Part shown: in pieces, positions 38,748 through 46,571 of the stretch
Numbering within the stretch: position 1 is the first letter of the stretch
Layout: each line of letters opens with the position of its first letter
NCBI GenBank assembly: GCA_965153455.1
Contig: OZ234493.1
Span: forward strand, 248,001-312,000
Source: Sphagnum compactum
Taxonomy: Eukaryota
Reading direction: 5' to 3'
DNA length: 64,000 nucleotides
Notes under the pieces: generated by a model
Told to the model about the DNA's origin: nothing
The model's input: only the letters and a program-made list of their open reading frames with translations
The model's database searches: none
Program-made: the position numbers and the translations under genes

Positions 38748-40461
38748 TGATTGTTGGGTAGGTGGAAATCTTGTCTCTTTCAAATTTCAGAATATTCTGA
38801 AACTAATGCATTCCAAGCCAGTTTGCAAGTCCTGGTTTAAACATCATCCTGTACAAATGATATAAAGCATTGCAGCTAAGACTTCTGTAGTAGCAAAAGA
38901 AATGTAGAATGTAGTATCAATTCATTGCAGGACATTGATTTGCAGCAAGCTGTTTGTTATTCTTTTAACTCAAGAATGGCTTATTGTCATCTTCCAGTCT
39001 TTAGGTTCGCAGAGCAGGTGGGTTGACAGATCCACTGTTGATGCATCTGACTTTGAAAATCCCTTGAAATTCCACCAATAGATCCCAAAAGATCTGAGCA
39101 ACAAAGAGCTTATTATTTCACGTCAAATTCGACTCTTTGCTTGCTAATAGAAGTCTACTTCGCCAATACCAAATTTGGGATAGCAAAACTTCATACTTCA
39201 AAAAAACATCAATGCACAGTCAAAAATGGAAAAGAACAAAAACAGCCCTCCAAGTCACTGCCATTACAAGTCCTTTGCATTCTTCTCACATTTATCAATC
39301 TGCAAACATGCAACAGTATGGCCAATTGTATGTCAAATACTTATCATTTGAGCGCATAACATTTAGGTCCAATACTTCCACATATTTTTCCTGCATAGTA
39401 CTCTTGATGAATATGCCAACAAAAAGCTCCCCTGGTGGAGTGTTTCCTTCCTTGGAGTTAAGGGGGTGGAAACTACCAAATATACATTGTAAAACCACCT
39501 TCTCAGGTTCATAAAGATTTTACAACTGTTCTCTGTTTTAGGTTTCCTATCTCCCTCCCATGGGAGATATGTCAGTCATCTCCTGCGTTGGAGATAACAA
39601 AGCTGGGGAAAGATATCATTGTCAGAAAGAGGAACACAAAATAGTCATACTATCTTCATGTAAAAGGGGAGGTCAAACCCATGAACCTCCTACCATTCTC
39701 AAACCTCCCACCATTCTTGGTTGCTCGCCTTGGCTCTCTTCCCTCAAACTGAGTGTTTTCAGGTTCAAACCTCCCACAGTTCTTGGTCATCTTGGCTGCT
39801 GCCTTGGCTCTCTTCCATCAACCTGCATGAGGCTCTCAGGTTTGAACCTCCCTTACCACAAAACAATTAGCTTTTAGCCCATAAGTGGAAGTTGTAGTTC
39901 TCAAAGGTGCTTGCCCCCAAGCACCTTGATCATGATGCAGTGTGTCCATGTCCCCTGTGATGAAGAAACCATCAGTGAACCATCAACAAAGCAACAATGA
40001 ACCATCCCATGAAACATCTTGAGATAATAGATACCATGTGATTTCACCATGTCCAATTCTCGAAGGGCTTGTTTCTTGATTTGAGAAATAAGGCCCACCT
40101 TTTCTGCCTTGGTGGAATTCTAGTGAACCCCAACATTGTCAAAGGCCAACAACTTAACCCTCATCATTGTATGTACAAGAAACTTTGTTACTGGTCTGTA
40201 TGTCCAGGGTACCGATGCTGGTGCTTGTAGCTGAGTATTGGAAATGCCGAGAAACTCCAAACAAACCCACACACATGTACATGAAGCAGCTGAATTTCCC
40301 AGCTTCTTCAAAGCTTTCCACCTCAAGTGTCCACTGATAATTACTGTGGGCTACTGTAGATCATCAACTTCCTGAAGTGCCAAGTACTAGGAATGGCAGG
40401 ATCTCTCATTTGTAGATTTGGAAGGTTAGTGAATACCAGGGAGCTTCAAAGCCTCAAATCA

Positions 40462-43400
40462 TCAGGTACTTTCTGTCACAAAAAGAAGAGATGAATTTCA
40501 TTAATCTGCCATGTTGAAGATTTCCAATTTAAGGGCAAAAACATGACACAAAACAGATCACAATTTTACAATAGACATGATGAACCCCTTAAGATCCTTG
40601 GATTAAGAACCCTAAAACCTGAAAACCCCTTCAAAAACTCCCAATTATCTTAATCTCTGTGACCCAAAGAAAAAACACACTTACCATTTAACACGTCGGA
40701 TATCACATTCCAGTTTTGGCAACAATTGTATTTGTGGACCACAGGCTTGCAGATTTCATGTTGTTGGCGCTTCTTCTGCAGTGAAGTAGTCACATTGGAA
40801 ACTGGAAGGAGGGGTGATCGGTCACCACGATATTCAATCAACGGGTTGCGATCTATGTCCTTCAGTGCTAAATACTCGACACAAAATGGACCTTGAGAGC
40901 GGCGAGGATCTGATGGAGCTAATCCAGTACGACTTGTTCTCAAAGTGACATGCCACTCAGCAATAAGCATAATGTGGTCATCCACAGTGAATTCCCGGGA
41001 GCTTCTTGCATTGTACCACCAAAGGCCTTTTTTCCACAGAAAAGCTCCATTTGACGTTACCTCAACCTTGTTAAGACCGAAGTTCTTTGGAGTTGGCCAT
41101 ATCTTACACCTCATTGCAATTTTCAAATTGTCAACCATGGCTTTGACAATGATGGTATTCTCTTTTATCTCATAAGATGAATGCCTGCAATTGCAAAAAA
41201 AAGAGCATACTCAGACACATGCAAAAAAGAGCCCCTCCAGCATAGCTCACAAAAGCAATTTCAGCTCTCTTACAGAGCCATCCACTCAACTAAGCTGACA
41301 AAATGCGATTCACATGAGAACTAGACCACTTACAAACAAATTCCCAATGGTTTTAATGTTTGAACAGCATCTTGGAAAGAAAATTGATCTCATTGAGTAT
41401 GAGAAAGTCTTACCCCCTTCTAAAGCTTGTCGGTGACAATGCAGCACTGTGACTGTGCAAACTGGGACCATTAGTCAGTGAGTACTGTCGTCCTCCACTA
41501 CTGAGTTGATCATCCTCCACTACTGGAGGGCCCTGAAAATACAGCAAGTCCAAAGCTTCTGAATTTCAGGAACATGTGCACACAAGCATGTCAGGAAGGC
41601 ACACACGCATGTCAGGAATGGACACAAGCATTCCTGACATGCATTAAAGAAGTACAAACACTTAAAATGGTTCCAGAGTTGCATCTGACCATAATTGGTA
41701 TCTTTTCAAACATATTCGAGCACTCAGTGAATGAAGAAGCCTTTGAACTTCTCATGCCATTCCCAATTCACAAGCTCTCTCAGACAAGCACTCTCTGCTG
41801 CTATTTGCAACAGTTTATGACAGGTTTGGTCTTTCTGAATAAAGCTTTTTCTTGAAGGAAAGACAAAAAACCCTAATAACAAAGGTCCAAGAAGAATTCC
41901 ACAACTTCCATCCAATGCTTGTTGCAGTGATGCTTGTGAGTTCTCTCATCTTCACAGCTCAGTCTAACCCTGAAGGATAAAGAGGTGATGCTTCAATCCT
42001 TCCTAAACTGAACCAGAAGAAGCAATTCTTCTCAGATTGGTTTTCAAGCTTTTCTTGAAGGTAAGGATACAAAGCCTAATGACCAAGGGTCTGAGAATCC
42101 TACAAGCTTGTCACAATGATGCTCATGAGCGCATAGCATCTTCACAGCTCAGTCTCACCTGAAGGAAGAGCCACACTTTGATGCTTCCTAACTGAACCAG
42201 AAGAAACATTCTTATGAGATTGGATTTGCAGCTTTTCTTGAAAGAATACAAAGCCTAATGACAAAGGTCCAAAATTCCACAACTTCCAATGCTTGTGGTG
42301 GTGATGCTTGTGACCTTGCATCTTCCCAGCTGGGTCTAACAACCCTGAAGGATGAGGCACCCGCTTCAATCCTTCTTAACTGCACCAGAGGGAAAACTCT
42401 TCTCAGGTCAGCTTTGAAGCTTTTTCTTGAAGGAAAGAATACAAAACCTAATAATGAAGAGTCCAAGAATACCACAATCTTCATTCAATGATTGCTGAGA
42501 CAGTCCTCGCTCATGGAGCTTATCTTCTTCACAGCTCAGTCTAACAACCTGAAGGCTGCAGAACAGTTATTCATGCTTCAATAATAAATGTTTCCCAATT
42601 GAACAAGGAGAAGAAACAATTCTCAGATTTGGGTTTTGAAGCTTTTTTCTTGAGGAGAAAAAGAATACAACAAACCCCAATAACAAAGGTCCAAGAAGAA
42701 TTCCACAACTTGTTTCCAATGCTGTTGCTTGTTGTTGCGGTGATGATGCTAATGGAGCTCTTCACATCTTCACAACTCAGTCTAAAACCCTGAAGACACT
42801 GAAGACTCATGGCTGAACTCATGTTCAATCTGATGTTGCTCATGGAGCTCTTCACATTTTCACAGCTCAGTCTAAAACCCTGAAGGTGGCTGAAGACTCA
42901 TGGCTGAACTCATGTTAAATCTGATGAAGCTCATGGAGTTCTTCACATCTTCACAGCTCAGTCTAAAACCCTGAAGGTGGCTGAAGACTCATGGCTGAAC
43001 TCACGTTCAATCTGATGAAGCTCATGGAGCTCTTCACGTCTTCACAGCTCAGTCTAAAACCCTGAAGGAGGCTGAAGACTCATGGATGAACTCATGTTCA
43101 ATCTGATGATGCTCATGGAGCTCTTCACATCTTCACAGGTCAGTCTAAAACCATGAGGGAGGCTGAAGACTTATGGCTGAACTCATGTTTTTCTGATGTT
43201 ATGATGCACAAAATCCATTGGAAATTCACAAAGAAAAGCAAGCCAGGATGACAGAAAGCTTGGATCTCTTGCAGATTGCTCTTCTATGAGAAATAGATGC
43301 TGCTGCTGCAGCAGCAGGAGCATTGTTCTTTGAAGGAGAGGAGAGGGAGAGTAGTACTCTACCTCAAAGCTGAAGTCAGAGCTGGAGACATCTTTGGATT

Positions 43401-44949
43401 CAGAGTTGTAGAGGGCGATGAGAACCTCCTTCATGCTAGGTCTTCTCTCAGGGTTGTCATCCAAGCAAGCTCTTGCCACCTTCACCACATTCTGCAGCTG
43501 CTCCAGTGAGTACTCAGCAGGTAGGATCCCTCTGTCGACCATCCTGGGCAGCAGCACAGGCAGAAGAGACTGATCACTGGTCAGAAACTCCTTGCACCAA
43601 GTGACCAAGCTCAGTTTCTTCTGAATGGCTCTTCTTCCAGTGATGAGCTCCAGCAACAAAACCCCATAGCTGTAGACATCGTTCTTGTCCACCGCTTGCC
43701 CAGTTCTCAAGTAGTGGGGATCGACATAGCCGGCCGTTCCACGCAGTCTGTGAGAGGCAGTAGGGTCATGCCCTAGAATGAGAGCTTTACTGAGACCGAA
43801 GTCCGCGAGCTTCGCTTGCATGTCGTCGTCGAAGAGAATATTACTGGACTTGATGTCTCTGTGCACCAGAGTAGGATGTGCGTGGCGATGGAGATACTCC
43901 AGTCCTTGCGCAACCTCGATGGCTACACGGATCCTCGCTTTCCAGTCCAGGAATGTGGCCGCTGCTGCTCCTGAATCACATTCGTGTAGGTGTTGGTCTA
44001 GTGATCCGTTAGACATCAACTCGTAGATTAGAAAAAGCTCCTGTCCTTCTACGCAGTAACCAAGCAAGGCGACCAAGTTCCCATGGTGCAAGCGCGAGAT
44101 CGTTTTGAGCTCCACCCAAAACTCCTTTTCCAGCGTTGCCTGCTGCTCCTGCACGGGCATCTCCGTATTCTCCAGAAAACCCGCATTAGGTCTTTGCAGC
44201 TTCTTCACAGCTGCAGAGACTTCAAGCTCACCAGGAAGCATGGCAGGAAGCATGGCAGCATACACTATTCCTTGTCCTCCGCGACCCAGTTCCTTTTCGA
44301 AGCTGTTCGTCATGCTCACAATCTCCTTGAGCGTGTACTGCTTCACAAGGTTCCCTACTTGCAAGCCGCTTGCCATCGGACTCAAGCTCACCATCACCCG
44401 GGCGGCGGGACTGAACACCGGATTGTTCTTGACCTCGGAGGAGGAGCTTTGCGGCAGCTGATCCTCGATTTGCATCAGCATCTTCGACTGCAAATCCTCC
44501 TTCTCCTCCGTCTTCTTCTGACGTCGTGCTCTCCACCACAACCCAGTCGAGACTCCAAACATGAAAATGAAAGCCAAGCTCAACAAGAAACATACGACAG
44601 TAACTGCAGCTACTACATTTTGCAACAGAGCTGCAGCTACGAGCTCCACCGCCATGAGCAGCTGCTGCAGCTCACTCCTAGCTTCCATAGTAGCAAAAAC
44701 TAACAAGATGACAAGAACCCAAGAGTTGGATACTAGCCATCTCCAACATCTCCTCACCACCACTTCCAGCAACTCCTCTAGCCGCTCCTTCTTGTTCTTA
44801 TTCTTGTTCTTCTCCCCATCCCTAACCATCTGCACTGGCCCCACCAACACAAGCTCTCGACCACCACCATCACACCCACCTCCAGACTGCTGCTGCTGCT
44901 GCTGCTGCTCACCACTACTTGTACCAACACCAAACTGCCGCATCGCCAT
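40462..44949 (-). CDS. Membrane-anchored RLK/Pelle-family RD kinase with no ectodomain and an extra C-terminal ~165-aa domain. Exons: 44949-43363, 41532-41414, 41184-40685, 40472-40462
   Basis: Hydrophobic segments, then LGRGGQGIVY, AAVKKL, HRDIKSSNIL, DFGLSK and GTAGYVDPHY. Downstream exons join in frame through canonical GT-AG sites (phases 0, 2, 1). Confidence 0.85.
41730..43200. repeat. Intronic repeat array in the kinase gene: diverged ~180-220 bp units (41730-42750) plus a younger ~62-65 bp array (42750-43200) sharing TTCACAGCTCAGTCTAA..CCCTGAAG
   Basis: The core recurs at about 41951, 42141, 42323, 42527, 42769, 42858, 42950, 43041 and 43132. Confidence 0.85.
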
Positions 44950-45412
44950 CACCTTGGCTGCTCCCAACAACACATCAAAGCCTTTCTTCACGATCGTTTC
45001 CGCCTTCCACTTCTGTCGCCGCCTATGGTGAAAAGCTACTGTTTGCAGGGATTTGTCGTACTCGATCTCGCATGTTCGCTTTTAAGATTCATATATTCTC
45101 AACTAAATGCTCCTGTTCCTTTGTTCTCTTCTGTCTCCAGTTCGTCGAGAGGAGAATCTGCCAACACACAGAGGAAGAAAACACTCGCGACTCTTGTCTT
45201 GTCTTATCTTGTCTTGTCTTTCCCTTCTTCTTCTTCCTCTTCGCTGAGAGAGAGATGTGCGCGGGTGCGACGAGCTGCACGACGAACTCCGTGTCAGTCC
45301 CCGGATTCGAACTTTGAACCTTCGTGCTCTTCTTCTTCTTCTTCAGAAAAAAATTTCTGGCTAAATTTAGCCAATTGGCTATTTTCTTTTTTCAAAATGG
45401 CTAAATTAACTC

Positions 45413-45448
<36 letters not shown>

Positions 45449-46571
45449 TGTTTTATTTGGAGGGTTGGAGGGGGGTTTTTTCTAGTAGCCAAATTTCAAC
45501 AAAATTTCTGGGAATTTTGCAAGATTTTTTCTATTTTGGTTCTAGCATACATAGTAAAAAAAATGTGAAGGATATTTGAATTTCTTTTTACTTTCATATC
45601 CTATTTCTTCAGATTTTTATTTATATTTTATTTTTAAATTTGGGTTTTACCATACATAGTCAAAAATGTCAATGATGCTTGCATTTTTTTATTTACTTTC
45701 ATATCCTCTTTATAGCCAATTTTACTTTCATATCCTATTTATAGCCAAATTTGGCTCCACTTATGTCTTATGGATGATCTATTGATCACCACTTCAGTTA
45801 CATCATAATAATGGGAAAAAAAAGGGCAAAAAAAAAATAATTGAAAAAAAAAAGCCCTAGCCATAGGGGGCATTGGGCATTGGGAACCTTGGGAACATCA
45901 CAAGAAAAAATAAATAAAAATAGAAAGGGTGGTGGACCTTATTATTAGGTATTTATTATTATTAGGTTCTTATTATTTTATAGCAAAGAAACGTGTGAGT
46001 AATAAAGGGAATGGGGGGGGTATATGTAAAAACCTCAACCCACTTTGGCCCCCAATTGTTAAATTGTTAATGGTATCCTTGAGGATGTTAGGTGTTCTAG
46101 AAATGTGCAATACTTATAAGATCGGATAACATGACAAACAAGGTGCGTGTCACACAATGGCCTTGCCATGAAAATTTCATTTCTTTTAAGCACATATACA
46201 ATGAAAGGCAAGAAATATATATATATATATATATTTATTTATTTAAAACACATTTCAAAAATCTTTTATGTTGATGGACAAAAAAATTGCAAGTCTTTTT
46301 TGAATCCATCCATGAAAGTCATAATGTTCAAACTAAGGAAAAAACAACCTACCAAAATAAGAGTCAAAGTAAGTCCCTTGAAGTTAGGAGTGTTCTATAA
46401 TGAATCTCAAACACTATATATTCCTGTCTACATAGGCAAAAAGGCCAACAAAAGCATTTACATGAGGGATAATGTATAGGAGAAAGGGCATGTGTACCCA
46501 GATCCCTTTTCCACCTTCAAGCAGAGAGATTTTTTTCATGTTGTAGAAATAGTGGACAGGCTGGCTGGTAG

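Follow-up and report, generated by a model that had tools for sequence, protein, structure and literature searches.

An expressed Sphagnum kinase gene spliced to a conserved C-terminal domain predicted to be all-beta

Gene structure and transcript evidence

The window analysed here is the whole 64,000-nt stretch of Sphagnum compactum contig OZ234493.1 from position 248,001 to 312,000, and the gene described below lies on its minus strand with the ATG at 44949 (Table 1). The gene is composed of four exons separated by three introns with GT..AG boundaries, and the summed exon lengths give 738 codons in a frame that is open throughout, for a product of 738 aa. The position of the start codon agrees with that of the Sphagnum jensenii model P0004. 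The first exon encodes an N-terminal low-complexity region, the hydrophobic segments, a juxtamembrane region and the kinase domain, and its GT donor is located directly after the codon of the final E. A disordered linker then leads to a compact domain of about 125 aa, referred to here as the C-terminal domain (CTD), which is encoded entirely by one exon. The 3' UTR reaches at least position 40000, and one X4 contig splices out 39954..40097.

Table 1. Features of the kinase-CTD gene in the window, with the evidence for each.
Feature	Position	Strand	Evidence
Exon 1, coding part, 529 codons	43363..44949	-	ORF/translation; polyA RNA-seq depth 13-33; donor joint at 43363
Seven Gln codons, residues 15-21	44887..44907	-	Translation
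First hydrophobic segment, residues 70-90	44680..44742	-	Kyte-Doolittle window 19, peak 1.82
Long hydrophobic stretch, 44 residues, 96-139	44533..44664	-	Kyte-Doolittle peak 2.82; conserved columns in alignment A3
Ser/Thr protein kinase domain, RD type, residues 217-510	43420..44301	-	Pfam PF00069 E 1.3e-38, PF07714 E 7e-39
Intron 1, 1830 nt, GT..AG	41533..43362	-	26 junction reads (X23) at joint 41531/43362 (cut +1), 24+2 from 16 starts; X3, X4 contigs
Tandem repeat in intron 1, 91-nt unit, 4.9 copies	42741..43189	.	Tandem Repeats Finder, 92% matches, score 758
Alternative cassette exon in intron 1, 221 nt	42159..42379	-	Junction reads; translation
Exon 2, 119 nt, Ser-rich linker	41414..41532	-	Junction reads on both sides; translation
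Intron 2, 229 nt, GT..AG	41185..41413	-	20 junction reads from 15 starts (X23) at joint 41183/41413 (cut +1); X3, X4 contigs
Exon 3, 500 nt, CTD and start of disordered tail	40685..41184	-	Translation; depth 24-34 (X23)
CTD core, nine-strand all-beta (predicted), residues 3-128 of exon-3 peptide	40800..41177	-	AlphaFold2; alignments A1, A2; dN/dS
Intron 3, 212 nt, GT..AG	40473..40684	-	14 junction reads from 10 starts (X23) at joint 40472/40685; X3, X4 contigs
Exon 4, last 8 coding bases, then stop 40464..40462, then 3' UTR	40000..40472	-	Sequence; depth 35-42 at 40000-40361 (X23)

The splicing pattern was examined with the raw reads of a polyA RNA-seq run (X23), of which 568 aligned to the window (498 of them at least 99% alike) in a mapping that left out 44860-44922 as repeat. 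The first mates fall almost all on the plus strand, as a minus-strand RNA would give in stranded libraries of the usual type. The initial annotation had predicted junctions at 43363/41532, 41414/41184 and 40685/40472, and exactly these three are found in the reads; splicing makes use of the donor, the linker exon and the exon of 500 nt just as had been proposed. The same three joints are also present in metatranscriptome contigs of X3 and X4, the middle joint carrying one extra letter in X4. Run X18 exhibits none of the three joints and its contigs span intron sequence, thus it behaves like genomic DNA. Read depth in X23 is zero over 42896..43257, within intron 1, indicating that the first donor is not read through and that the tail of the long ORF is not expressed. 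This ORF is indeed just the first exon, as initially annotated, but its length from ATG to stop is 588 aa and not the 602 aa given there. The kinase spliced to the CTD is therefore a real, expressed moss gene, and the locus illustrates for annotation that a long kinase ORF can be merely exon 1 of the real gene.

Within intron 1, the acceptor joint of the cassette exon (42379/43363) is represented by 7 reads from 3 starts in X23, and its donor joint (41531/42158) by one read and one X4 contig. Translation of the cassette encounters an in-frame stop after 55 codons. The cassette exon is used by a minor isoform, which would yield either a CTD-less kinase or a transcript that is degraded.

Kinase domain and N-terminal region

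The kinase domain scores above the curated Pfam cut-offs, with 133.4 bits for PF00069 (cut-off 31.7) and 134.1 bits for PF07714 (cut-off 23.1), and the translation contains the Gly-rich loop, the catalytic Lys, HRD and DFG. These catalytic motifs are kept in 19 of the 20 proteins in alignment A3, the exception being the paralogue P0035 with HCD and NFG instead. The nearest solved chains are the kinases of a plant LysM-RLK, CERK1, SYMRK and BRI1 (E 1e-55 to 1e-49), with PBL2, BIK1 and then IRAK4 also among the top chains. By sequence, the domain is assigned to the RLK/Pelle class, its closest relatives being plant receptor-like kinases and animal IRAKs. In the Shiu scheme, some classes bear moss names, RLCK-Pp and URK-Pp-2 among them (PMC10916322).

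The protein had been initially annotated as multi-TM. Hydropathy, on which the predicted topology is based, does identify two hydrophobic regions (residues 70-90 and 96-139), but only the kinase-adjacent one is conserved across the family in A3, where its C-terminal part forms a family-wide transmembrane helix followed by basic residues. At the position aligned to residues 70-90, the paralogs exhibit a signal-peptide-like N-terminus, as seen in A3 and in paralog ORFs that start hydrophobic. In the window protein, where this segment starts 70 residues from the N-terminus, it may serve as an anchor and not as a cleaved signal. With the predicted segments, no more than a few dozen residues would lie on the outer side of the membrane. 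The layout is shared with the TM-bearing RLCK classes, which feature an RD-type RLK/Pelle kinase, a tiny extracellular stub and one conserved TM helix that is followed immediately by basic stop-transfer residues; the moss family differs in adding a conserved folded C-terminal domain that has no Pfam model.

Distribution of the kinase-CTD family

In 40 of 43 related loci, the CTD exon is preceded on the same strand by a kinase exon, and the contigs of the other three end early, with less than 1700 nt of upstream sequence. In all 18 of the longer CTD proteins, a kinase domain is present as the sole Pfam domain; those that are named, 11 in number, belong to five Sphagnum species, Physcomitrium patens and Ceratodon purpureus. 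An uninterrupted ORF of 649-729 aa covers both the kinase and the CTD in seven of nine contigs, the remaining two being genomic with the intron retained. The exon 2 linker is conserved among close orthologues only, with tblastn matches in loci L001-L006 alone. The paralogue lineages examined all have the CTD, and it was seen nowhere except downstream of this kinase; no free-standing CTD protein was found, and the kinase is present at every locus with enough upstream sequence. The initial annotation called the C-terminal domain hidden, but gene models publicly available for Sphagnum, Physcomitrium and Ceratodon already contain the fusion. Judged by named database entries, the subfamily has so far been seen in mosses only.

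Fold, conservation and sequence relatives of the CTD

AlphaFold2 analysis of the exon-3 peptide provides ten-residue block means of pLDDT of 71-95 over residues 1-130 and values below 50 from residue 129. A second confident model was obtained for a paralogue whose domain is about 60% identical to that of the window. The mean pLDDT of the two models is 76.8 (with the tail) and 88.2 (without the tail), and both are nine-stranded, in agreement with the initial proposal that exon 3 adds a beta-rich folded domain. In the four comparisons with unsaturated dS, dN/dS is 0.07-0.12 for the CTD versus 0.11-0.14 for the kinase; six more distant comparisons were left out due to saturated dS. The identity of the CTD also equals or exceeds that of the kinase in every diverged group. 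These substitution rates and identities indicate that purifying selection acts on the CTD with at least the strength seen for the kinase.

An exhaustive search of 1.84 billion representatives provided 19 CTD matches, 18 of which share 53% identity or more with the query. The only match below 50% identity, P0038, is a low-complexity tandem-repeat protein and was set aside as noise. The profile search gave 48 matches, all close relatives, the weakest at E 2e-17 and followed by a gap to E 1. No Pfam model matches the CTD in hmmscan at E<=10 for 15 CTD sequences, and at this threshold the exon-3 peptide and the complete 186-aa frame likewise hit no family; three Pfam families that appear on one or two of the 15 short ORF proteins (E 0.008-0.1) are weak and unrelated to the CTD. 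The profile found nothing among PDB sequences except one chance match at E 2.1, Foldseek of the CTD model against the PDB gave no match at E<=0.001, and the ESM Atlas provided neither a usable match nor a stored model for the CTD. A narrow literature search, which is not proof of absence, found no description of the domain. At the level of detectable sequence similarity, the CTD is an orphan with no relative outside its family and fits no described family.

Proposed role and structural neighbours

Among the surface signalling proteins of land plants, receptor-like kinases form the main class, and what they sense or bind can usually be told from their accessory domains. The best reading is that this expressed gene belongs to a subfamily of membrane-anchored RLK/Pelle Ser/Thr kinases, so far of mosses only, in which the CTD probably serves as an intracellular docking or regulatory module, a role that we infer from its anatomy and conservation. 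With almost no ectodomain, the protein itself probably binds no ligand, and the kinase would work at the membrane alongside other receptors or downstream of them. Within the cell, the CTD would then either bind a conserved partner or substrate or control the kinase. The stop-bearing cassette exon would provide, as a minor form, the kinase minus this module or an mRNA for decay.

In a first alternative, which is unlikely, the CTD would inhibit or dimerise the kinase to which it is attached, instead of offering other proteins a place to dock. This is consistent with the CTD never occurring apart from this kinase clade, with the flexible linker that tethers it according to both pLDDT and alignment, and with the existence of a splice form lacking it. 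Complex prediction for the kinase domain and the CTD gave a score of 0.01, which was obtained without controls and has no bearing on binding either way.

Fold comparison suggests a second alternative, in which the CTD is a true but very diverged homologue of the beta-sandwich of FAIM (Fas apoptotic inhibitory molecule) and a protein-binding module like FAIM. The N-terminal domain of human FAIM (3mx7) is the top solved match for both CTD models. The window CTD aligns with 85 of its 90 residues (Z 8.2, rmsd 2.9; next row Z 5.1), with the same result in a repeat comparison, and the CTD of the paralogue aligns with 88 of 90 (Z 6.5, rmsd 3.1). Entry 2kw1, which we take to be the FAIM C-terminal domain, is also among the matches at Z 4.1-4.2. 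Nearly the whole FAIM domain is therefore covered, but these scores are not decisive, as a best Z of 7-8 is typical on this scale for models without a true match and the margin of the paralogue over its next row is 1.2 Z. The structural alignments exhibit only 7-13% sequence identity, the Pfam FAIM1 model (PF06905) matches none of the 15 CTD members at E<=10, and neither the profile search of PDB sequences nor Foldseek, as given above, recovered a FAIM chain. The CTD is also about 35 residues longer with two short helices, and stands as one domain joined to a kinase, while FAIM is a free two-domain protein. Common descent with FAIM is accordingly judged unlikely.

A bolder form of the docking reading, held with similar doubt, is that the CTD is a signalling domain not described before, which originated in mosses or has been kept by them alone, is distant kin of the FAIM beta-sandwich and couples the ectodomain-less kinase to a conserved partner. 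If true, a whole moss kinase subfamily would use a regulatory module without counterpart in seed-plant RLKs, and the cassette exon would be a switch producing the CTD-less kinase.

The weak structural neighbours of the CTD include the beta-sandwich parts of the pore-forming proteins TDH, CytK, alpha-hemolysin and the actinoporins. A membrane- or lipid-binding beta-sandwich that holds the C-terminus of the kinase at the bilayer is nevertheless improbable, since their scores (Z 4-5.3) are at background level and the protein is already membrane-anchored.

The initial annotation had compared the CTD to the C-terminal half of plant DUF868, a likeness that was based on a motif. A diverged copy of that half is a slightly poorer prospect still: PF05910 has no match at E<=10 in the exon-3 peptide, the whole 186-aa frame or any of the 15 members, and no DUF868-annotated protein occurs among the 18+19+48 matches. 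By sequence the CTD does not appear to be a DUF868 domain. Both are plant proteins predicted to be beta-rich, and one screen (PMC3045335) flags DUF868 proteins as beta-rich barrel candidates. The DUF868 proteins named in the literature considered here are 354-444 aa long and none is described there as kinase-fused, whereas the CTD has 125 aa and is invariably preceded by a kinase.

The suggestion that the CTD is an integrated decoy or sensor, which draws on the layout of cereal kinase fusion and tandem kinase resistance proteins with a kinase joined to an unusual extra domain, is highly improbable: those proteins are soluble, lineage-specific and fast-evolving, and decoys are expected to be young and to evolve fast, but the moss fusion is membrane-anchored, common to distantly related mosses in several paralogue lineages and under strong purifying selection, with no free-standing CTD protein found for a decoy to imitate.

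Mosses as distant as Sphagnum and Physcomitrium share a multi-copy kinase subfamily whose most conserved part is a folded domain for which no database has a description. Physcomitrium is easy to engineer, so the role of the CTD is directly testable, and a Pfam model for the domain would label dozens of moss proteins.

Additional read ends at exon 1

The loose ends of 15 reads at 43362 and of 11 reads at 43394 were considered as a possible alternative acceptor, which was rejected. Their lengths (104+32+14) make up one read and the loose sequence does not occur in the window, thus they are taken as reads of a paralogue sharing 32 nt. The same kind of sum applies at 44784/44815 (73+32+48).

Gene structure and splicing

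The gene spans 40462..44949 on the minus strand and is composed of four exons, whose summed lengths give a product of 738 aa. The long ORF that begins in exon 1 runs from its ATG to the stop over 588 aa, in place of the 602 aa of the initial annotation. Four public runs were mapped onto 40000..45400: polyA RNA-seq raw reads (X23), two sets of metatranscriptome contigs (X3 and X4) and a DNA-like contig run (X18). A total of 568 X23 reads were placed, 498 with at least 99% identity, and almost all first mates lie on the plus strand, consistent with RNA from the minus strand if the library is of the common stranded type. Reads from X23 join the exons at exactly the three predicted junctions, and the same joints are present in the X3 and X4 contigs. 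None of the three is found in X18, whose contigs span intron sequence; this run looks like genomic DNA, and the joined form is therefore RNA rather than a processed gene copy. X23 depth is zero over 42896..43257, immediately downstream of the first donor, which indicates that the tail of the long ORF is not expressed and bears out the prediction that this ORF is exon 1 only. None of the transcript-level objections looked for in the RNA reads (an end within intron 1, read-through of it, or exon 3 belonging to another transcript) counts against the spliced model.

Features of the kinase-CTD gene and its flanks, with X23 support for exon joints
Feature	Position	Strand	Description	X23 support
Exon 1	ATG at 44949, ends 43363	minus	GT after codon for the kinase exon's last E	to exon 2: 24+2 reads, 16 start places
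Exon 2	41532..41414	minus	AG/GT-bounded, frame kept	to exon 3: 20 reads, 15 start places
Exon 3	41184..40685	minus	AG/GT-bounded, frame kept	to exon 4: 14 reads, 10 start places
Exon 4	from 40472; stop 40464..40462	minus	AG-bounded start, frame kept	
Cassette exon	42159-42379	minus	221 nt, inside intron 1	minority of reads
Tandem repeat	42741-43189		91-nt unit, 4.9 copies, 92% match, in intron 1	
Upstream ORF	45036-45092	minus	18 codons, in likely 5' leader (by eye)	
(TG)n microsatellite	45413-45451		just upstream of the gene	

A cassette exon is included in some transcripts: seven X23 reads with three starts join exon 1 to its acceptor, and its end is linked to exon 2 by a single read and a single X4 contig. 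The depth of 3-7 across much of intron 1 fits a minor isoform of this kind. Translation of the cassette meets an in-frame stop after 55 codons, and the isoform would yield a kinase lacking the C-terminal domain (CTD), or degraded mRNA. Degenerate copies of the 91-nt repeat unit are seen by eye through much of intron 1, to about 41940.

Kinase and membrane region

Residues 217-510 match Pfam protein kinase models, and the translated sequence contains a Gly-rich loop, the catalytic Lys, and the HRD and DFG motifs. The nearest solved chains are the plant receptor kinases LysM-RLK, CERK1, SYMRK and BRI1; PBL2 and BIK1 rank next, ahead of animal IRAK4. Judged by sequence, this part is an RLK/Pelle kinase. 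Hydropathy picks out a segment spanning residues 70-90 and a 44-residue hydrophobic stretch at 96-139. In an alignment of 20 family members, the sole universal hydrophobic segment is the helix that immediately precedes the basic stretch and kinase; the description as multi-TM is plausible for this orthologue on hydropathy, with one helix common to the family. Paralogues carry a signal-peptide-like N-terminal segment followed by roughly 45 residues before the helix, and the term ectodomain-less is fair. In one Sphagnum balticum paralogue (P0035, 577 aa), HRD and DFG are replaced by HCD and NFG, and the CTD is retained; from these motifs it may be a CTD-bearing pseudokinase.

The C-terminal domain

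The exon-3 peptide and the whole 186-aa frame have no Pfam match at E<=10, and none of 15 family members scanned singly matches DUF868 (PF05910) or FAIM1 (PF06905), leaving the suggested DUF868 resemblance without support from sequence. No Pfam model exists for the CTD. When 1.84 billion representative proteins were searched exhaustively with phmmer, 19 matched at E<=0.001. Of these, 18 share 53% identity or more with the query; the other, a low-complexity repeat protein, was set aside. A profile search against proteins of similar length returned 48 matches, all at E<=2e-17, and none between that value and E 1. This gap indicates a sharp-edged family with no distant relative visible by sequence.

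AlphaFold2 with the family alignment predicts a confident nine-strand all-beta domain at residues 1-128 followed by a disordered tail, in agreement with the beta-rich domain proposed for this exon. A paralogue of about 60% identity was also modelled, with a mean pLDDT of 88.2 and its structural elements in the same order. Foldseek against the PDB gave no match at E<=0.001. An exhaustive structural aligner ranked the human FAIM-NTD (3mx7) top both for the window's own CTD (Z 8.2, rmsd 2.9, 85/90 residues aligned, next row Z 5.1) and for the paralogue (Z 6.5, rmsd 3.1, 88/90 residues, next row Z 5.3). Models that lack a true match commonly reach a best Z of 7-8, so the modelled likeness to FAIM-NTD is a lead and not evidence of membership.

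Distribution and constraint

The 18 longer CTD-containing proteins all have a kinase domain as their sole Pfam domain. The eleven with names belong to Sphagnum jensenii, S. balticum, S. fallax, S. magellanicum, Physcomitrium patens and Ceratodon purpureus; where further clusters contain named members, these too are all from mosses. The S. jensenii model (761 aa) shares 96% CTD identity and the same joints between exons 1, 2 and 3, with only the last exon differing. Public databases thus already hold this fusion as uncharacterised kinase proteins; it is neither hidden, as first described, nor new. Among 43 related loci from metagenome contigs, 40 have a same-strand kinase exon upstream of the CTD and the remaining three have less than 1700 nt upstream. 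Of nine contigs examined, seven have one ORF of 649-729 aa spanning both domains, and two are genomic and retain the intron. In the searches made, the CTD does not occur outside this kinase family. A narrow literature search, mostly of titles and abstracts, found no description of it. The Shiu kinase classification contains the moss-named classes RLCK-Pp and URK-Pp-2 (PMC10916322), and the family may belong to one of them.

In every diverged paralogue group, CTD similarity to the window's copy equals or exceeds that of the kinase domain (for example 87% vs 79%, 81% vs 74% and 72% vs 60%). By the Nei-Gojobori method, the four comparisons with unsaturated dS give dN/dS values of 0.07-0.12 (CTD) and 0.11-0.14 (kinase); six more distant comparisons, with saturated dS, were left out.

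Proposed function

The product is a membrane-anchored, catalytically complete RLK/Pelle kinase. A flexible linker connects it to the CTD, a predicted beta-sandwich that is strongly conserved. Because a real ectodomain is absent, the protein itself is unlikely to bind a ligand, and a role alongside or downstream of ligand-binding receptors is probable, with the CTD either docking a conserved partner or substrate or regulating the kinase in cis. We consider this overall picture moderately likely. Of the possible CTD roles, docking is slightly favoured over autoinhibition or dimerisation of its own kinase. The integrated decoy of the initial annotation fits poorly with a fusion that is multi-copy, slowly evolving and common to distantly related mosses.

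Flanking regions

In the 3' UTR, one X4 contig joins 40098 directly to an exon whose end lies near 39953, with about 144 nt spliced out, unlike an X3 contig that is unspliced across 39924-40098. The different C-terminal tail of the S. jensenii model comes from this downstream exon. The likely 5' leader is covered only by X18, X3 and X4 contigs, with no X23 reads. Some sets of X23 reads align over only about 32 nt, at 43363-43394 and at 44784-44815, and are loose on both sides; these probably come from paralogues with common short conserved or low-complexity stretches.
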